Shown piece by piece: positions 24,391-33,091 of a DNA stretch of 50,992 nucleotides. Origin of the DNA: Candidatus Asgardarchaeum abyssi (GTDB taxonomy: Archaea; Asgardarchaeota; Asgardarchaeia; Asgardarchaeales; Asgardarchaeaceae); NCBI GenBank assembly GCA_040225955.1, contig JBECUL010000012.1, forward strand, positions 1-50,992. The letters run 5' to 3'. Within the stretch, counting starts at the first letter, position 1; the number at the start of each line of letters is the position of its first letter. The notes under the pieces were generated by a model. The model was not told the DNA's origin. It made no database searches and worked only from the letters and a program-made list of their open reading frames with translations. A program made the position numbers and the translations under genes.

Positions 24391-24822
24391 ATGCCAAAAA
24401 GGAAAGCGAAAGCAAAGAAGAGGAAAAAGCCAAAATCTCATAAGTGGAAAATGATAGTAGTAATGATTATTCTCTTAGTTGTAGTGTATTCATACGTAAG
24501 TTATCCAAGAGCAATATACTCCAAGCAGATATCATCAACATCGGTAGGTACAACAGAAGAAACTTTCGAAGTACCTATGTTGAAATATCGAATGAAAATA
24601 ATAATTGAATATGAAATTACTGGTTATACAAATATAACAATTATAGATCCAGATGGTAAGACTTTATTTACATGGGAAAAATCTGTTATTAGGAAAGATA
24701 GTGGATCAATAACTCGTAGCTTTGACATTAGCAAAAGTGGTGAGTACACAATTATTTATCAGACATTGGGCTCGTACGCTTTAAATATAATGATCTATGT
24801 CTTTAATCCACCCTTTAATTAA
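24391..24822 (+). CDS. Membrane-anchored (type II) beta-sandwich protein, GOLD/p24-like
   Basis: Lys-rich N-tail, one TM segment, then a beta-rich domain with ITIIDPDGKTL and F....SGEY patterns. Confidence 0.55.
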   Translation: MPKRKAKAKKRKKPKSHKWKMIVVMIILLVVVYSYVSYPRAIYSKQISSTSVGTTEETFEVPMLKYRMKIIIEYEITGYTNITIIDPDGKTLFTWEKSVIRKDSGSITRSFDISKSGEYTIIYQTLGSYALNIMIYVFNPPFN

Positions 24823-24935
24823 CACAAGAACTATCTGAAAAGGCTAAAAAACATTTATGTATTAAGAAATTTCACATTGCAAAAACTTAATTAAATCAAT
24901 GTATAAAATAGTTTTCTGTTAGAGAGGAGTTAGCA

Positions 24936-25490
24936 ATGTCTGAGGAAAAACCATACATTTTCAAAATTGTTATGGCTGGAGATGGCGCTGTTGGAAAAAC
25001 AAGCATTGTGCGTCAGTATATCACACATACTTTTCAGAAAGACTATCTCTCAACACTAGGTGTCCAAGTAAGTACGAAAGAAATCCGGTATCCAGACCTT
25101 GCTGTAGTAAAACTGATAATCTGGGATGTTGCTGGGCAGCAGATCTTTGGCTCTGTTAGGCCGATGTACTATAAGGATGCATCAGTTGCTGTGTTGGTTT
25201 ATGATATTACTGATAGAGCAACCTTTGAGAGTATCCCAAAATGGGTTAAAGAAATACATGAAAATGAGCCTAACGCATCAATAGTATTAGTCGGTAACAA
25301 AATAGATTTAGACTATGCACGAAAAGTTTCAAAAGGAGAAGGTGAAAAACTCGCTAAGGAGTTAAATTTAGGAGGATTTGTTGAAACATCTGCAAGAACG
25401 GGAGAAGGAATTAACAAATTATTTGAGATAGTAGTAATTCTTTGTTTGAAAAAGAAGATAGAAGAGCTAAAGAAATTGGCTGGTGTATAA
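24936..25490 (+). CDS. Rab-like small GTPase (Ras superfamily)
   Basis: G1 GDGAVGKT, G2 STLGV, G3 WDVAGQ, G4 GNKID, G5 ETSAR; YYKDA, LVYDIT. SD AGGAG. Confidence 0.93.
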   Translation: MSEEKPYIFKIVMAGDGAVGKTSIVRQYITHTFQKDYLSTLGVQVSTKEIRYPDLAVVKLIIWDVAGQQIFGSVRPMYYKDASVAVLVYDITDRATFESIPKWVKEIHENEPNASIVLVGNKIDLDYARKVSKGEGEKLAKELNLGGFVETSARTGEGINKLFEIVVILCLKKKIEELKKLAGV

Positions 25491-25492
25491 AA

Positions 25493-26542
25493 ATGGTATT
25501 TGCCCGAAAATTTCCAGAATTTTCTTTCCCCGAGGCTGTACGCAAGTTGATGAACTATATGTTAGAGAAACCTCATTTTATAGTAAAGCCTGCTTTTTCG
25601 GAAAAAGAGATAATAACATACCCAGATTTAATTTCTATAACTGGTTTAACTATTGAAGATGCTATAAAGCTTCTAAAAGAGCTTGTTGATGCAAGATGGG
25701 TACGTGCCAAAATTTCAAGTAATGTTCCCATGTGTCCTAAATGTGAGTCATTAAAATTGGTTTCTCACCTAGTTTGCCCAAATTGTGGAGATGCGAATAT
25801 AACTTCTGGTTCTGTTATTAAACATCTTAAATGTGGATTTTCTGGTTTTATTTCCGACTTTAAAGAATTGGACGAATTTGTCTGTCCAAATTGTGAAACT
25901 AAGTTAAAAATAGACGAATTGGGTGTAACTTGGATAGTACCTGGTATTCAATATCAATGTAATAACTGTCGATCATTTTTCGAATCACCAAAAATTGAAT
26001 TTGAATGTCTAAATTGCCGTAATAATTTTTCTCATCATGAAGCAAAAATTTTCAGCATCTATGAATATTATCTTAATCCAATTAATTTGAATATAATAAC
26101 AGAATATACCGGCTCATTTACTGACTTAATAAATGCTTTAGCGGTAAAAGGTTGGGAAATTGCATATCCCGCAAACTTATATGGCAAAGCGCCATCTCCT
26201 CATACATTCACTTTTAACTTCAAATACAAGGATCTCATAAATTGCGTTGTAGATGTTATATATTCACCTATAGGATTTGTTGATAAGACACATGTACTGA
26301 ATTTCATAAGTAAGATTGTTGAGCTTGAGGTAACTCATAAGTTAATAATTGCAGTTCCAGAGGCAAACCAAGAAGCTAAAGAAACAGCTGAACTCTCTGG
26401 TATAGTACTAATTGAAGCAAAAACAATAGAAGAAGTTAAAGAAAAAATTATAGACTTTCTAGAAAGAAGTGTCGAAGAATTAAGTAAAGAGAAAGTATCT
26501 GCTGAAATTGAGAGAATCAGTAGATTACTTGAAGGCCTTTAA
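25493..26542 (+). CDS. TackOD1-like multi-zinc-ribbon protein with degenerate restriction-endonuclease-like C-terminal domain
   Basis: CPKC, CPNC, HLKC, CPNC, CNNC and CLNC at TackOD1-like spacing. C-terminal alpha/beta domain (HTF..VVDV..LIIAVP..EAKE.A..SGIVLIEA). The ATG lies 2 nt after the GTPase stop. Confidence 0.72.
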   Translation: MVFARKFPEFSFPEAVRKLMNYMLEKPHFIVKPAFSEKEIITYPDLISITGLTIEDAIKLLKELVDARWVRAKISSNVPMCPKCESLKLVSHLVCPNCGDANITSGSVIKHLKCGFSGFISDFKELDEFVCPNCETKLKIDELGVTWIVPGIQYQCNNCRSFFESPKIEFECLNCRNNFSHHEAKIFSIYEYYLNPINLNIITEYTGSFTDLINALAVKGWEIAYPANLYGKAPSPHTFTFNFKYKDLINCVVDVIYSPIGFVDKTHVLNFISKIVELEVTHKLIIAVPEANQEAKETAELSGIVLIEAKTIEEVKEKIIDFLERSVEELSKEKVSAEIERISRLLEGL

Positions 26543-26553
26543 GGGGATCTGTT

Positions 26554-28083
26554 ATGGAAGGAAAGACAAGGAAATCAATAGCGAAAGGGCTCCTAACATT
26601 AATCTATTTTGTAATCTTTGGAAATGGTCCATGGTTAATTGCAGTTATGTTTACTGTTTTTCTTGGTTATCTGCTAATTCCTTTATTATCGCAACAGTCC
26701 ATAGAAATATATTCAAAGGTAGTTATCCCGTCTCTTCCAATTAGTTTAATTTTATCAAGTTGGATTCAAGTCCTAGTCACTAAGAAGATTTTTGACTATG
26801 AGGCTTTAAGAAAAATATATTCAGCCAGAAGACTAATCATATTCTCTGTTATACTTACTACAGCTGTTGTGACATCCTTCTATATGATCTTTTTTGGTAT
26901 AAACATAATTGGCAAAGGCGGCGGTATTAATGAAAGTGATATTCTTCAATACCTAATGACTCTTGCTCTATCTTTGATGTGGGTGGGGTTAGCTCCTCTC
27001 AATGGTCTTCAAAAATATTTTCAGATGACAATGCTATTTTCATCTGGAATGTTATTCAGCGGTGTGCTTGCCTATTATTTTACTGTAATGGGATTTAATA
27101 TAACATACATTCTAATTGCATATGTTATTGGTTACCTCATCTCTGCTGTTGCGATGTACTTTTATCTCCTTTTTGGAATTTTCCGTTCTCCCAAGCTTAC
27201 CGTTAAGTTAGATAGAGCGCTTATTAGCAAAATAATAGAAGTATCACGTAATGTTGATAGCGGTGAAAAATTAGCTAAATTGCTTCCTATAATTTTAAAA
27301 GTTCAAGAAAGATTATCTCCCGATCAAGCTCTTATAATTTTAAATAAGGCTGAGCTTGAGATGGGGCAAACTGAAAGCTTAAGAGAAATGTTATCTGGGA
27401 ACTTCTGGCTACTTGTTTCTAATCTGTTATATTTCCTCTTTATATGGCAAGATCGATTCATCGTGTGGATTAAAGAAGGAATGCATGTTGAGGGCTTATT
27501 TATAGGATTCAATAGCTTTTATGAAATAGGAATAAATGTGGTTCAATGGGCTCTAATTCCAACAGTTGGTGTGGCAGCTTATTTAATGTCTGAGTTTACA
27601 CCAACGCTCTTGAAATCTTTAAACAAATTGTATACTGGAACGCTTGATGAGATAAAAATATCATTAAGGAGATTTATACACGATATATACTATAGAGCGG
27701 GCCTTCTCTTGGTCTTCGTAACCTCTATTACTTTGGTTTTTGTAATATTCTCTGATCATATTCTTATGTTTTTTAATCTTAAAAATGAGGTATCAAGCTT
27801 TGTTCTACATGTTGGAGCCGTAGGAGTTATTTTTCATGCTCTTATGATATATGAATTTCTTGTTCTTATGTATCTTCAAAGATTAAAGGACAATGCACTA
27901 ATAATGAGCGTAGGGCTTATTACCGCAGCATGTATAGACGTTTATTTCTTTTTATTTGGAAGCTATCATTATATTATCTACAGTTATGTAATTGGAGCTC
28001 TAGTCACAGCCACAGTTGGTATCATTTTAATAAAAATTAGAGTAAGCGAACTATATTATTATTTCCTTTCAAAAGCAATATAA
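26554..28083 (+). CDS. pelG: PelG-like exopolysaccharide exporter (MOP flippase fold)
   Basis: About 12 TM segments. Contains N-terminal GPWL, mid-protein LY.LFIWQDRFIVW, YE.G...Q..LIP and a Y.G...EI helix, all characteristic of PelG. Confidence 0.72.
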   Translation: MEGKTRKSIAKGLLTLIYFVIFGNGPWLIAVMFTVFLGYLLIPLLSQQSIEIYSKVVIPSLPISLILSSWIQVLVTKKIFDYEALRKIYSARRLIIFSVILTTAVVTSFYMIFFGINIIGKGGGINESDILQYLMTLALSLMWVGLAPLNGLQKYFQMTMLFSSGMLFSGVLAYYFTVMGFNITYILIAYVIGYLISAVAMYFYLLFGIFRSPKLTVKLDRALISKIIEVSRNVDSGEKLAKLLPIILKVQERLSPDQALIILNKAELEMGQTESLREMLSGNFWLLVSNLLYFLFIWQDRFIVWIKEGMHVEGLFIGFNSFYEIGINVVQWALIPTVGVAAYLMSEFTPTLLKSLNKLYTGTLDEIKISLRRFIHDIYYRAGLLLVFVTSITLVFVIFSDHILMFFNLKNEVSSFVLHVGAVGVIFHALMIYEFLVLMYLQRLKDNALIMSVGLITAACIDVYFFLFGSYHYIIYSYVIGALVTATVGIILIKIRVSELYYYFLSKAI

Positions 28084-29400
28084 GAGCCTCTCATAGACTC
28101 TTAATAATTCATCTGAAAAATTCCTTACAGAAAAGTTGTTAGTAATATAATTTCGTCTTAAGACTTTCTTTCTGTTATATTTGCCATTTGTATATTCTTC
28201 TTTTGCTCGCATGATTCCTTTAGCTAGAGCAAGTGAATTATTCTTAGGAACATAGTAACCTAAGTTGGAAATAACCTCAGAAACTCCACCAACATTTGTA
28301 ACAACAGACGGTATCCCCATAGCTGTTGCTTCAATTAAAGAGAACGGTAACCCCTCAATAAGACTCGGCATTGCAAAAATATCGATCTCTTTTAATGCAT
28401 CATTGACGTTCCAAGTTTCTCTATGAAAAATGAAATAATTTTCTATATTAAGATCCTCGACTAATGACCTTAGGAAATCATAATAATCATAGTCATCTAT
28501 TGGCCCATATATATTAAATATCCAATTACTATTGCTATCGATTATTTCTTTTGCTGCAAGAATTAAACTTTCAAAGCCTTTTATTGGATTTATCCGAGCT
28601 ATCATTCCAACCTTTATTTCTTTCTCCTCTGGGTGATCTTTCATAGGATAACATTGCGTGGGAATTCCGTTTCTCAGAATGATACTTTTTGTTTCCTTTA
28701 TTCCTAGAATTTGTTTATTTCTCTTAACGTGAAACTTAGCTACTGGCAATATTACATTGGCTTGTGATATTGTATACTGCAAAATATTATGTACATCATT
28801 TAACGAACTGTTTAAATCATCGTTTTTCTCCTTCAACTCTCTTGGATATCGAATTTCACCAAGGAAATAAGGATTGATTAAACGTAATTTCCATTCTTCC
28901 AATAAATCTCCATGCTGAGAGATTAGAATAGGTACATTTATTGTTCTCTTAATTGCGATGGCAAGTAATGCTGCAAGCCCAGGGTTTGCCGCGTGTATTA
29001 TATCTCCTACTGGTAGTGAGAAATGTTCTATAATCTTAAATAGTGGCGATATAAAATGTTCAAAAGCTAATTCATTTTCTCTTACTCTAATGCTTAAATG
29101 TCTCTTGATCTTGTCTATTACTTTATCATTAAAAGTTATATAATTGCATTCTACATCGGAAAATCGAAAAGCTTTGAATCTTCCACTCCAGGGATCTATG
29201 TTAAGAATCATAGAAAGAGAGTTCCAATTTTTGTTTTTCTCTGGAGCATCTTCAATGTCAGATGTTATATTAATTATTGAAAAGTCACATGAATAATTTC
29301 CAATAGACGAAAGTATACTCCTAATCCACGTTAGAATGCCATTTGGATTTTTAAATGATAATCCTTCCGTAATGATCGTTACCTTTTTCAAATCAACCAC
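28069..29400 (-). CDS. GT4 glycosyltransferase, divergent PelF-like
   Basis: IITEG...GILTWI (degenerate DUF3492 start), IHAANPGLAALL, SQHG, ARINPIKG, GPIDD..YY, EGLPFSLIE (EX7E). Confidence 0.82.
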   Translation of the reverse strand: MVDLKKVTIITEGLSFKNPNGILTWIRSILSSIGNYSCDFSIINITSDIEDAPEKNKNWNSLSMILNIDPWSGRFKAFRFSDVECNYITFNDKVIDKIKRHLSIRVRENELAFEHFISPLFKIIEHFSLPVGDIIHAANPGLAALLAIAIKRTINVPILISQHGDLLEEWKLRLINPYFLGEIRYPRELKEKNDDLNSSLNDVHNILQYTISQANVILPVAKFHVKRNKQILGIKETKSIILRNGIPTQCYPMKDHPEEKEIKVGMIARINPIKGFESLILAAKEIIDSNSNWIFNIYGPIDDYDYYDFLRSLVEDLNIENYFIFHRETWNVNDALKEIDIFAMPSLIEGLPFSLIEATAMGIPSVVTNVGGVSEVISNLGYYVPKNNSLALAKGIMRAKEEYTNGKYNRKKVLRRNYITNNFSVRNFSDELLRVYERLLYCF

Positions 29401-29642
29401 ACACTTACCTTATATATTAAAAATCGATCTTATTAGGATATATAATACATGTTACCAATTTAAAGTTATCCATTCAAACAATAAAATTAGAAATATTAGG
29501 TGACCATTAATAAATGTATCAAAATATAACTTGATACTTAGGGTATTATTGCTTCCTTTTTGTTTTTGCCCTACAGATTGTGATTATCTTTAATAATGTG
29601 ATAATTCTTTATGTTCTAAGAGAAAGAATCTTGGTGTTTGGC

Positions 29643-30398
29643 ATGAAAGAGATTCGACTGATCGGATTAACATCAATTCCAATAGTTAAGCCGGGAGATG
29701 ATATTGCTCAACTAATATTTAACGCTCTGAATAATGAAAATGTTCCTCTTGATGATGGTGATATTATAGTTATCGCTCAAACAATAGTTTCAAGAGCTGA
29801 AGGAAGAATAGTTAATTTAAATGAAATAACACCATCGAAATTCGCTGAAACTATTGCTAGTACATATAATAAAGATCCTCGGCATGTTGAAATAATATTG
29901 CGTGAAAGCAAATCTATAGTCAGGATGGGTAATGGTCATATAATCACTGAAACTCATCATGGATTTGTTATGGCAAATAGTGGTGTTGATAGAAGCAATG
30001 TTCCTGGGGATAATACAGTCTCGCTTTTGCCTATAGATCCCGATAAATCAGCTAGAATGATAAGAAGTAAATTGAAAAAACTGACTGGTAAAGAAGTTGC
30101 TGTTATAATAATAGATTCTATGGGGCGTCCTCTTCGAAATGGAATAATTTCGGGTGCCATTGGCGTGTCGGGGATAAAACCTCTTAAAGATATCCGTGGA
30201 GAGAAAGATCTCTTTGGGTACGTTATGAAAACCACTGTAATCGCTTTAGCTGATGAATTAGCATGCGCTGCTGCATTGGTGATGGGTGAAACTAATGAAG
30301 GAATACCTGTAGTTATTATAAAAGGCGTCAATTATGAGAAGGGTGAATATAGTGCAAAAGAATTAATAATGCCAATTCAAAAAGATTTATTTAGGTAA
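29643..30398 (+). CDS. cofE: Coenzyme F420-0:L-glutamate ligase
   Basis: IPIVKPGDD, IVSRAEGR, ANSGVDRSN, LLPIDPDKSA, DSMGRPLR, ADELA, MGE..EGIPV. Confidence 0.95.
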   Translation: MKEIRLIGLTSIPIVKPGDDIAQLIFNALNNENVPLDDGDIIVIAQTIVSRAEGRIVNLNEITPSKFAETIASTYNKDPRHVEIILRESKSIVRMGNGHIITETHHGFVMANSGVDRSNVPGDNTVSLLPIDPDKSARMIRSKLKKLTGKEVAVIIIDSMGRPLRNGIISGAIGVSGIKPLKDIRGEKDLFGYVMKTTVIALADELACAAALVMGETNEGIPVVIIKGVNYEKGEYSAKELIMPIQKDLFR

Positions 30399-30470
30399 TT
30401 AATTTCTCATTATTTCTAACTCAACTTTGCTAATACTACAAACAATAAGACTTGAAAGAATGGTGATTTT

Positions 30471-31874
30471 ATGAGGGTTGCAATAATAACTGAAGGAACG
30501 TACCCCACAACCTTGGGAGGAGTTTCTTATTGGGTACATAATTTGATAGATGGCATGCCAGATATAGAATTTGTTGTCGTTGCAATAGTACCGACTAAAG
30601 AACCCACCATTCGATTTGCAAAACCACCAAATTTAAAAGAAATAATATTCGTACCGGTACCTCATAAACTTGAAGAATTTAGCGATATTGAAAAAACAGA
30701 CCTTGTTGACGAAATGGTAGAGGAGATTATTCAGTTTCATAAAAATATAAAGAATTTTAAGTTTGTAGAAGCTTATAAAAATCTTAAAAAAGTGTATCCT
30801 ATTTTTTTAGACAATCCTATGAAAATATGGCGTCACAAACTTCTTTGGAAATTTCTTGAAGAATACTATAAGAAAATAAATCCCAAAACTGCTTTTTTCA
30901 AATGGCTAGTATCTTGGAAAAATACACATGCTCCTCTGTTATCACTACTAGCTACAAAAATGCCTGAGGCTGACGTTTATCATGCAACAAACTCTGGTTA
31001 TCCCGGACTAGCGGCTCTTTTAGGTAAAATTTTATACGGCGGTCGTACACTTGTAACAGATCATGGTCTTTTTATTCGCGAGTTAAGAATTCGCATTGAG
31101 GCTTCTCTTTTAGATAAGATAGAGAAACTATTATGGATTCGCACTGGCGTTAGTATAAGCATAATGAACTACCATTTATTTGATTTAGTAACCACAGTTT
31201 GTGAATTCAACAAGAGATGGGTAATCGAAAACGTCGGAATACCCGCTGAGAAAATCAAAGTAGTTTATAATGGGATAGATACCGACTATTTCCGCCCCCT
31301 CTTAGTCCCTCGTGATCCCTACTTGGTAGGAACGATAGCTCGTGTCTATGATATAAAGAATATAAAAGATTTCATAAAAGCTGCAAAATATGTTGTAAAA
31401 CGTGTTCCAGAAGCAAAGTTCGTTGTAATAGGCCCTGTAGATGACCCTGTATACTGGGATGAATGTAACAGATTGGTTGAAATGCTGGATCTGAAGGAAA
31501 AATTCCAGTTCCTAGGTCCGACAACTAATACTTTATTCTGGTATAATTCGATATCAGTCTTCGTGCTATCAAGCGCTAGCGAAGGTTTTCCGCTGAGTAC
31601 TATAGAAGCCATGGCATGCGGGACTCCTGTAATTGTAACAGATGTTGGTGGTGCAGGTGAAGCTGTTGGCAAATGTGGATTTGTAGTTCCTCCGTACAAT
31701 CCTAGAAAGTTAGGAGAAAAAATTGTATGGCTTTTAACACATCAAAAGGAAAGAGAACAAATGGGTTTGTGTGCTAGAGAAAGAGCTGTTAAATATTTCT
31801 CACAAAAGAAATTTATCAGAGAATTTAAGAAGATATATACAACCTTGGCTCGTAAAGAGAGAGTTTTGGCATGA
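30471..31874 (+). CDS. pelF: PelF-like GT4 glycosyltransferase (DUF3492 plus GT-B)
   Basis: EGTYPTTLGGVSYWVHNLI (PelF/DUF3492 signature), YHATNSGYPG, TDHGLFIRE, ARVYDIKNIKDFI, SEGFPLSTIEAMACG. Confidence 0.85.
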   Translation: MRVAIITEGTYPTTLGGVSYWVHNLIDGMPDIEFVVVAIVPTKEPTIRFAKPPNLKEIIFVPVPHKLEEFSDIEKTDLVDEMVEEIIQFHKNIKNFKFVEAYKNLKKVYPIFLDNPMKIWRHKLLWKFLEEYYKKINPKTAFFKWLVSWKNTHAPLLSLLATKMPEADVYHATNSGYPGLAALLGKILYGGRTLVTDHGLFIRELRIRIEASLLDKIEKLLWIRTGVSISIMNYHLFDLVTTVCEFNKRWVIENVGIPAEKIKVVYNGIDTDYFRPLLVPRDPYLVGTIARVYDIKNIKDFIKAAKYVVKRVPEAKFVVIGPVDDPVYWDECNRLVEMLDLKEKFQFLGPTTNTLFWYNSISVFVLSSASEGFPLSTIEAMACGTPVIVTDVGGAGEAVGKCGFVVPPYNPRKLGEKIVWLLTHQKEREQMGLCARERAVKYFSQKKFIREFKKIYTTLARKERVLA

Positions 31875-32311
31875 CATTAACAATTTTCACTGTTGGGCAT
31901 TCAAACAGATCCTTTGAAGAACTGATTCGAATATTAAAAAAGTACAATATAGAAACTATAGTTGATGTTAGGAGTTTTCCAACAAGCAAGAAATATCCAT
32001 GGTTTAATAGAGAAACCTTAGAGATTGAACTTCCCAAGTTTAAAATTAAGTACATATGGCTCAAGGATCTTGGAGGGTATCGCAGGGGTGGATATGAAAA
32101 GTATCAAGAGAGTGAACAATATAAAATAGCGTTAGATGAATTGATCAGCTTAGCTAAAGAGTCGCGAGTTGCAATAATGTGTGCCGAAAAGCTTTGGTTT
32201 AAATGTCATAGAAGGTTTATTTCAAACGATTTAGTAAGAAGAGGAATCGAAGTGATTCATATTATTGATCTTAAACGAATACAAAAACACAAACTGAAGA
32301 AGCAAGTTTAA
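31871..32311 (+). CDS. DUF488-family protein
   Basis: IFTVGHSNRS, VDVRSFP.S, LGG, MCAE..W..CHR. ATGA overlap with the pelF-like gene. Confidence 0.9.
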   Translation: MTLTIFTVGHSNRSFEELIRILKKYNIETIVDVRSFPTSKKYPWFNRETLEIELPKFKIKYIWLKDLGGYRRGGYEKYQESEQYKIALDELISLAKESRVAIMCAEKLWFKCHRRFISNDLVRRGIEVIHIIDLKRIQKHKLKKQV

Positions 32312-32431
32312 CTGTCATGTATTATTGTTCATAGCTGAAACTTAGTTTTTTAACGGAAATAAATTTTATAATTCCATAAGTTCTCATAAATATCTAGCCT
32401 ACTAAACATAAATATCATGAGCGTGTGATCT

Positions 32432-33091
32432 ATGAGAATTGGAATTATTGGTGGTACAGGCGATCTTGGAAGAGGTCTTTCTTTAAGATGGGCAAAAAAT
32501 CATACTATATTTATAGGGTCCAGATTTAAAGAAAAAGCTGAGCGAATAGCTGATGAATATAATAAAATTGCAAAAGATTACTATAAAATGGATGTTGAAA
32601 TAGTTGGTCTTGAAAATAAGAAGGCCGTAGAAAAATCAGAGCTTGTCGTTCTTTCAATACCTGCGGAATTCATAAAAACAATAGTTGAATCTTTTAAAGC
32701 TGAGCTTTCAGGAAAGATTATAATATCTCCCATAGTTCCTATGAGGAAGGAAGGCAATAACTTTATTTATATACCACCCCCTGAAGGAAGCGCAGCTCTC
32801 CTGTTAAGGAAAATAGTTCCAGAAACAACGAAAATTGTTGCAGCGTTTCATAATCTATCTGCTATCAAATTAGCAGAACTGGGACGTAAGCTAGATTATG
32901 ATGTAGTGATGTGCGGCGATACTGAAGCAAAATCTGTAGTATCCGAGCTTATCAAAGAAATAGAAAACCTTAGACCATTAGACGGAGGGCCGTTAGAAAA
33001 TGCTTATCTTATTGAATCCTTGACTCCGCTTTTGCTTAATGTTGCAATTAGAAACAAGCTTAAACTGCCATCAATAAAGTTTGTACTCTAA
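32432..33091 (+). CDS. npdG: NADPH-dependent F420 reductase
   Basis: IGGTGDLGRGL, IGSR, GSAA, AAFHNLSA, DGGPLENA..IESLTPLL. Confidence 0.93.
   Translation: MRIGIIGGTGDLGRGLSLRWAKNHTIFIGSRFKEKAERIADEYNKIAKDYYKMDVEIVGLENKKAVEKSELVVLSIPAEFIKTIVESFKAELSGKIIISPIVPMRKEGNNFIYIPPPEGSAALLLRKIVPETTKIVAAFHNLSAIKLAELGRKLDYDVVMCGDTEAKSVVSELIKEIENLRPLDGGPLENAYLIESLTPLLLNVAIRNKLKLPSIKFVL

Follow-up and report, generated by a model that had tools for sequence, protein, structure and literature searches.

In the deep-branching Asgard archaeon Candidatus Asgardarchaeum abyssi, a reduced set of Pel-type exopolysaccharide genes lies directly behind a gene pair encoding a Rab-like small GTPase and a TackOD1-family protein. 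The locus lies on contig JBECUL010000012.1 of assembly GCA_040225955.1 (contig C12 in this analysis), whose 50,992 nucleotides make up the whole stretch analysed here, referred to as the window. The genome comprises 2.6 Mb in 189 contigs, is ~93% complete and is the sole representative of its own class among the Asgard genomes compared. The favoured reading, to which a probability of about one half is assigned, is that a reduced Pel-type cluster has come to follow a GTPase/TackOD1 signalling module, with TackOD1 as the effector and an output that is most likely transcriptional. The genes concerned and their immediate neighbour cofE are listed in Table 1.

Small GTPases of eukaryote-like type number in the dozens in Asgard archaea, and to our knowledge almost none of them has a known partner or output. 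The present comparison finds one Rab-like subgroup that is operon-linked to a single partner family, TackOD1, which gives an orphan Asgard GTPase a testable candidate partner. In the window's lineage, a defined physiological output in the form of a Pel-type exopolysaccharide cluster is linked to the pair as well. Three testable hypotheses arise, namely GTP-dependent binding of the two proteins, DNA binding and control of polymer synthesis. A further outcome is that several archaeal phyla possess PelF/PelG cores without detectable PelD or cyclic di-GMP (c-di-GMP) machinery. The first-pass annotation of this DNA, made from the sequence alone, knew of no description of the arrangement, and the literature search agrees, as no publication was found on the Rab–TackOD1 pairing or on its Pel link. 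The search on Asgard Rab-like GTPases together with zinc ribbons returned nothing, and the literature found on TackOD1/arCOG06883 makes no mention of GTPases or Pel.

Table 1. Features of the GTPase–TackOD1–Pel locus, in window coordinates (aa, amino acids; GT4, glycosyltransferase family 4)
Feature	Position	Strand	Basis
Presumed promoter/leader of the GTPase gene, AT-rich	24823..24935	+	read from sequence; GAGAGGAG Shine-Dalgarno-like site 7 nt before ATG
Rab-like small GTPase, 184 aa	24936..25490	+	Pfam Ras, 166 bits; G1-G5 motifs; PDB matches
TackOD1-family protein, 349 aa	25493..26542	+	PF18551, 122 bits (cut-off 32); AlphaFold2 model; fold matches
PelG-family polytopic membrane protein, 509 aa (putative Pel-type exporter/synthase subunit)	26554..28083	+	PF16933, 95 bits
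Second GT4, 443 aa, PelF paralogue with degenerate DUF3492 N-domain	28069..29400	-	profile matches; EX7E retained
cofE (F420-0:gamma-glutamyl ligase)	29580..30398	+	TIGR01916, 289 bits
PelF-type GT4, 467 aa (DUF3492 + GT4)	30471..31874	+	NCBIfam PelF, 208 bits; DUF3492, 172 bits; EX7E

Gene content and conservation of the five-gene block

The GTPase, TackOD1 and PelG genes form a plus-strand run, and re-reading of the coordinates returns the layout given by the first-pass annotation. The open reading frames (ORFs) lie where they had been placed, a 2-nt spacer separates the GTPase stop codon from the TackOD1 ATG (25493), and an 11-nt spacer separates the TackOD1 stop codon from the start of pelG, which is preceded by GGGGAT as a Shine-Dalgarno-like site. 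The minus-strand GT4 gene converges on pelG and overlaps its end by 15 nt. Profile scores also bear out the identities assigned to the five genes as GTPase, TackOD1, PelG, PelF-like GT4 and PelF. The membrane protein is a true member of the PelG family, scoring 95.4 bits against a cut-off of 29 and covering profile positions 14-450, with about 10-11 hydrophobic segments; its gene is present as a single copy in the genome.

The assignment of both GT4 proteins to PelF stands for the plus-strand gene and less well for the minus-strand one. The former exceeds the cut-off of 100 bits of the NCBIfam PelF equivalog (NF038011) as well as matching DUF3492 (PF11997), and carries the motif ITEGTYPTTLGGVSYW (EGTYP..GGVSYW) in addition to EX7E. 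The latter matches DUF3492 weakly (38 bits) and remains sub-threshold for NCBIfam PelF at 78.6 bits; it is conserved at the same position in four related loci (L010, L012, L202 and L203).

Close PelG homologues occur in seven clusters only, and a search for relatives in genome contigs starting from the single PelG protein confirmed none. At least four other metagenomic contigs contain the GTPase-TackOD1-PelG-GT4-PelF block, with a PelG that is 42-60% identical; the flanking genes differ in one of them. In L010/L011, with PelG at 60% identity, the whole neighbourhood is kept, including the upstream housekeeping genes. In L012, with PelG at 42% identity, the GTPase, TackOD1, PelG, convergent GT4 and PelF genes are kept behind a different upstream flank and without cofE. 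L202 keeps the GTPase, TackOD1, PelG and GT4 genes, and in L203 a C-terminal portion of TackOD1 (44% identity) is followed by PelG, GT4 and PelF. As this order is maintained in L010/L011, L012, L202 and L203, the block is a conserved unit in the window's lineage. Its spacers measure 2-49 nt, which suggests co-transcription.

The GTPase–TackOD1 pair

The GTPase has canonical G1-G5 motifs (G1 GDGAVGKT, G3 WDVAGQ, G4 NKID, G5 ETSAR) with the catalytic Gln of DxxGQ present, and its 60 best matches among PDB sequences are all Rabs, Rab6, Ypt6, Rab21 and Thor-Rab 7ezb among them. The C-terminus reads ...KKIEELKKLAGV and has no terminal Cys prenylation motif, and no transmembrane segment is predicted in the protein. 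The window's genome contains at least 17 strong Ras-family genes, and in a GTPase tree the window protein falls in a subgroup whose members are mostly adjacent to TackOD1. A second Ras-family gene on the contig (10593-11129, minus strand) is the genome's top Ras match (206 bits) and shows no relationship in this tree to the subgroup linked to TackOD1; the closest paralogue of the Pel-linked GTPase in the genome is located at C36:18028-18501. According to Tran et al. (2024, PMC10933270), genome layout is seldom informative for Asgard GTPases, since their genes do not as a rule share operons with those of their regulators. Relative to the GTPases with roadblock/longin partners described there, the window GTPase is alike in its Rab-like fold and motifs, as the match to Thor-Rab indicates, but its subgroup differs in being operon-linked to one partner family.

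The partner protein had been proposed to act as a zinc-ribbon adaptor, a description that its predicted structure replaces with that of a soluble protein combining a winged helix-turn-helix (wHTH), a zinc-ribbon array and a restriction-endonuclease fold. The AlphaFold2 model is of high confidence (predicted local distance difference test, pLDDT, 96; predicted template modelling score, pTM, 0.85) and is divided into a MarR-like winged helix (~13-80), a beta-rich, Cys-rich zinc-ribbon array (~81-195), a restriction-endonuclease-like alpha/beta domain (~196-310) and a long C-terminal helix (312-348). The invariant Cys columns of the family correspond to C81, C84, C95, C98, C131, C156 and C159. 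The C-terminal domain matches the fold of AF1548 (Z 10.1, root-mean-square deviation 2.3 Å, 100 residues aligned) and also resembles the Bax1, NucS/EndoMS and Can2 folds (Z about 10), while the N-terminal domain matches MarR/ArsR-type wHTH folds with Z scores of 7.4-8.6, which are borderline by the fold-search tool's own caution. No transmembrane segment is predicted. This modelled architecture suggests a soluble nucleic-acid binder rather than a membrane receptor of the PelD/PelE kind.

The TackOD1 family comprises ~1,900 cluster representatives, mostly of 300-370 aa and spanning the whole unit, and no Ras-TackOD1 fusion protein is found among the 150 best family representatives. Pfam detects neither Response_reg, the receiver (REC) domain, nor Mrr_cat in the window protein. 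Among 39 longer relatives, however, 10 contain Response_reg, 12 contain Mrr_cat and 3 match wHTH families, and the presence of Response_reg and wHTH agrees with the REC-TackOD1 and REC-wHTH-TackOD1 architectures on record (Galperin et al. 2018, PMC5847659). The window protein resembles these regulators of TACK archaea/Thaumarchaeota in joining a wHTH, the Cys-rich TackOD1 region and an Mrr-like unit and in its presumed coupling to an input switch; it differs in having no fused receiver, its presumed input being a separate small GTPase. With regard to catalysis, the near-invariant family motif G-x-S-G-x-x-H-x-F(D) reads GKAPSPHTFT in the window protein and GKSPTPH, GSGPIPH and GSAPAPH in the Pel-linked orthologues. 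The Asp of the strand motif 'VxD' is not conserved in the family, whereas K274 and D/E277 are. Nuclease activity is therefore doubtful, given the altered motif and the lack of a conserved strand Asp.

TackOD1 is present in 107 of 400 Asgard genomes. Eighty Asgard TackOD1 loci, containing 86 TackOD1 genes, were sampled and their neighbours labelled by hidden Markov models built for the analysis. A strong Ras-family gene is directly adjacent to 15 of these genes, always on the same strand (15/15) and separated by about -4 to 42 nt, larger apparent overlaps being the product of ORF starts called too far upstream. The GTPase gene comes first in 12 of the 15 pairs, and the three pairs in reverse order are all from one subclade. 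The pairs represent five subclades of TackOD1 and come from at least eight genome families, Odinarchaeia among them, and 12 of the 15 adjacent GTPases belong to a single 16-member group in a tree in which the window genome's own paralogues are included. On this distribution, the pair is a self-contained, widespread two-gene module of Asgard archaea that is not Pel-specific. The Pel-specific GTPase–TackOD1 switch implied by the first-pass annotation is not upheld, as the pair is usually found far from Pel genes.

A second polysaccharide context is seen in L039/L040, in which TackOD1 adjoins a Ras-like gene whose G3 motif is eroded, divergent from a chitin-synthase-like GT2; these loci are a second, non-homologous polysaccharide-synthase setting for a Ras-like/TackOD1 pair. 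In the loci of family f14 (L043, L048, L050 and L051), TackOD1 is bracketed by Arf/Roc-like GTPases of 300-370 aa and a double-zinc-ribbon protein; these GTPases have N-terminal extensions and differ in type from the Rab-like partners of 175-212 aa.

Other TackOD1 subclades have no GTPase neighbour, and several are located near KaiC-like ATPases, which fits the reported link of arCOG06883 to type IV pilus/KaiC loci (PMC4858521). KaiC-like genes near TackOD1 are seen in L045, L055, L069, L071 and L075. The window genome's second TackOD1 gene (C13:37623-39582, equal to L008:7623-9582) encodes a 377-aa protein of another subclade, with an N-terminal extension, and is not next to a Ras gene. It follows the gene for deoxyhypusine synthase, and genes for a KaiC-like ATPase and a macro-domain protein are directly behind it.

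Pel-type clusters in bacteria and archaea

The bacterial Pel synthase complex consists of the c-di-GMP receptor PelD, the TPR-containing inner-membrane subunit PelE, PelF and PelG, as known from Pseudomonas aeruginosa and from the Gram-positive pelDEA(DA)FG arrangement. The window locus is like it in encoding a PelG-family protein and a PelF protein with DUF3492 and GT4 parts, both over curated thresholds, and the genome contains, elsewhere than at the locus, a gene of the PelA-hydrolase type (GH114). It differs in the extra PelF-like GT4 paralogue and in its upstream genes, which encode a Rab-like GTPase and TackOD1 rather than a c-di-GMP receptor. It differs further in that PelD, GGDEF proteins, a CE4 deacetylase and PelB/C are absent from the locus and not detectable in the genome, although the blank for PelD is a weak one. 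For GGDEF (PF00990), no match was obtained in the ~93% complete genome, with controls positive in 8 of 14. The PelD profile (PF16963) likewise gave no match in the genome, a weak blank given that this profile was positive in no control genome, and Polysacc_deac_1, the CE4 deacetylase family, is without a match there. A PelA gene combining GH114 and CE4 is absent from the window. The first-pass observation that the window contains no recognisable PelD, GGDEF or PelA is thus sustained, within the limits of the PelD profile, and the search for these functions elsewhere in the genome yields only a lone GH114 gene. This stand-alone gene, of the PelA-hydrolase/endo-alpha-1,4-polygalactosaminidase type (C14:19158-20120, minus strand, equal to L037:9158-10120; 85 bits), has unrelated neighbours, a HAD hydrolase and an FMN reductase. 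By analogy with bacterial Pel, the polymer made by the locus is probably rich in N-acetylgalactosamine (GalNAc), and the GH114 enzyme could trim a GalNAc-type polymer of the Pel-like cluster.

PelG scores above the cut-off in 6 of the 400 Asgard species genomes. In four Odinarchaeia, divergent PelF and PelG genes are followed by genes for a 161-aa protein of no assigned family and a coiled-coil protein (L032:11482-12759). A metagenome-assembled genome (MAG) of Heimdallarchaeota has the order PelF, a 606-aa coiled-coil/wHTH protein, TackOD1 and a deacetylase::PelG fusion, and its cluster contains no GTPase gene. The fusion, in the region L036:3789-11115 (JBHIFL010000038.1), is a 1383-aa protein with Polysacc_deac_1 (PelA-like CE4) ahead of the PelG region, and the wHTH-like part of the 606-aa protein is its C-terminal end. 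Outside the Asgard group, MAGs of Nitrosopumilales/Nitrososphaerales (L126:1250-10002, L127:7503-16772) have a divergent GlmS gene followed by genes for an unassigned protein of 176-220 aa, PelF, an NAD-dependent sugar epimerase, a PelG-like membrane protein that is sub-threshold at 22 bits, an ATP-grasp protein and Spherulin4. We take the Spherulin4 family to be that of the fungal galactosaminogalactan (GAG) hydrolase Sph3.

A PelF and PelG core without detectable PelD is therefore the archaeal norm, so that the lack of PelD is not peculiar to the window. The window cluster shares this core with the other archaeal clusters; the GTPase is found only in the window's lineage, TackOD1 only there and in the Heimdallarchaeota MAG, and the accessory enzymes differ. 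No description of archaeal PelF/PelG clusters, including the thaumarchaeal Pel/GAG-like one, was found in the papers searched. The Pel-linked copy of the Heimdallarchaeota MAG is, among the non-orthologues in the TackOD1 tree, the one closest to the window clade. A tree uniting the four Pel-linked TackOD1 proteins lies 10.7 log-likelihood units above the free quick search (approximately unbiased test, p-AU 0.76), which shows only compatibility with one origin of the TackOD1–Pel link because the group was chosen with the tree already in view. TackOD1 is nevertheless retained within a Pel-like cluster in two distant Asgard lineages that differ in gene order.

Regulatory reading, alternatives and neighbouring genes

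Under the favoured reading, the locus would be a reduced archaeal Pel-type polysaccharide cluster of PelG, PelF and a second PelF-like GT4, with no recognisable PelA, PelD or PelE, that, in the window's lineage, has come to lie behind a mobile GTPase–TackOD1 module and is probably under its control. The Rab-like GTPase would be the GTP/GDP input switch and the soluble TackOD1 protein its effector and the output component, most likely acting on DNA to set transcription of the co-encoded pel genes. The separately encoded GTPase would in this way stand in for the fused receiver domain of the REC-(wHTH)-TackOD1 regulators of TACK archaea. GTPase–TackOD1 binding, DNA binding and control of pel expression are steps that we infer; it is plausible that the pair regulates the Pel genes, more likely through transcription than by gating the synthase directly. 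Of the earlier proposal of a Ras-superfamily switch on a Pel machine, the genuine PelG and PelF, the undetectable c-di-GMP machinery and the conserved gene order stand, while the Pel specificity of the pair does not and the TackOD1 fold is of a DNA-binding type.

Several observations weigh against regulation of the Pel genes by the pair. The Odinarchaeial PelF/PelG clusters have no TackOD1 or GTPase within 10 kb, and on the complete Odinarchaeial chromosome G303 a GTPase–TackOD1 pair lies ~62 kb from pelFG; the Nitrosopumilales/Nitrososphaerales clusters likewise have neither gene nearby. The synteny of GTPase and pelG holds in relatives at 42-60% PelG identity, once with other flanks, and breaks down in L009 (GCA_052584825.1, 'Ca. 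Asgardarchaeia archaeon'), where a PelG of 47% identity occurs without GTPase, TackOD1 or GT4 within 10 kb. This lone PelG, in the region L009:8768-14483, has as its neighbours a HEPN protein, a small zinc-ribbon protein of the DZR type and an nSTAND-NTPase/FHA protein of 958 aa, and could be decayed or re-purposed. Neighbours of the pair elsewhere are heterogeneous and mostly housekeeping (amino-acid kinase, Nre, methyltransferase, URO-D, adenylate kinase, saccharopine dehydrogenase), so that the link to Pel may be an accident passed on by inheritance. In five loci, a search for operators as 9-mers common to the regions upstream of the GTPase gene and those between GT4 and PelF, run with no control, returned AT-rich low-information words only. 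Cistrons sharing an operon with pelG would equally fit a structural or post-translational role.

Prediction of the complex adds little weight. TackOD1 and the GTPase were modelled with their own alignment each and with GTP and Mg included, giving scores of 0.43, 0.38 and 0.44, which exceed the best of three controls (0.00) and for which the tool's verdict is 'weak support', a weakness for the proposed binding. In calibration, 58 of 80 solved complexes reach the mark, against 2 of 110 mismatched pairs; at scores of 0.60 or below, only 7 of the 80 solved complexes do so, together with both passing mismatches. At least 0% of contacts are shared between the runs, with a partner pLDDT of at least 85. 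The result of this modelling, which the first-pass annotation had suggested, is a small nudge in favour of GTPase–TackOD1 binding rather than evidence of it.

One alternative is a direct post-translational gate, in which the GTP-bound GTPase and TackOD1 would dock on PelG/PelF at the membrane, switch polymerisation or export on and functionally replace PelD/PelE. The three genes in one tight run make equimolar co-expression of the GTPase and TackOD1 with PelG likely, and the genome has no detectable PelD or GGDEF. The occurrence of TackOD1 beside PelG in two distant Asgard lineages is also in favour of a direct gate, as is the motif change from GxSGxxH to Gx(A/S/G)PxPH particular to the Pel-linked TackOD1 clade. 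Neither protein, however, has a transmembrane segment or lipidation motif, the modelled TackOD1 folds are of DNA-binding type, most TackOD1 members and most GTPase–TackOD1 pairs are far from Pel genes, and other archaeal PelFG clusters do without both genes. The same kind of pair also adjoins a non-homologous GT2 synthase in L039, which a generic regulatory mode fits better than a PelG-specific dock. Such a gate is accordingly rated unlikely, and the stronger statement that in an Asgard archaeon a Rab-like GTPase gates the membrane polysaccharide synthase/exporter PelG/PelF directly, via a TackOD1 adaptor, a little more so. If true, direct gating would represent a prokaryotic case in which a small GTPase controls the secretion of a cell-surface polymer, and it would functionally replace c-di-GMP/PelD signalling.

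Juxtaposition without functional coupling also carries a low probability. Here, a module with a role unrelated to Pel would have landed upstream of pelG in the ancestor of a poorly sampled class. The mutually unrelated neighbourhoods of the pair elsewhere and the isolated PelG of L009 favour this, and the GTPase-linked Pel loci may count as a single event because all are from one lineage. The block nevertheless survives PelG divergence to 42% identity and a change of flanks, and the short spacers suggest co-transcription. An independent TackOD1–Pel link in the Heimdallarchaeota MAG and the polysaccharide-synthase link in L039 likewise argue against chance placement.

A GTPase-licensed Mrr-like endonuclease for defence or DNA repair, unrelated to polysaccharide synthesis, is very improbable: the restriction-endonuclease fold, the Mrr_cat domains of longer relatives and a wHTH plus nuclease-fold layout resembling Can2/Card1-type effectors fit it, but the altered family motif, the unconserved 'VxD' Asp and the missing Mrr_cat call on the window protein do not, the loci are without defence-island hallmarks, and PADLOC assigns no defence family to the GTPase, TackOD1, PelG or PelF. 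A weak PADLOC match of Cas11f on the GT4 that converges on pelG was dismissed as meaningless.

Among the neighbouring genes, a 143-aa ORF upstream of the GTPase gene (24391-24822) is excluded from the module, having no family match and being missing in L010. The ~1 kb separating the two GT4 genes is occupied by cofE. As cofE is absent between GT4 and PelF in L012 and L203, it is a lineage-specific or local insertion and not a member of the module. PelF itself is contained in the string cofE, pelF, DUF488 and npdG (F420 reductase; window 30471-33091), in which the pelF stop codon overlaps the DUF488 start (ATGA, 31871-31874). The apparent co-transcription of a Pel glycosyltransferase from between two F420-cofactor genes is an odd feature of the window locus.

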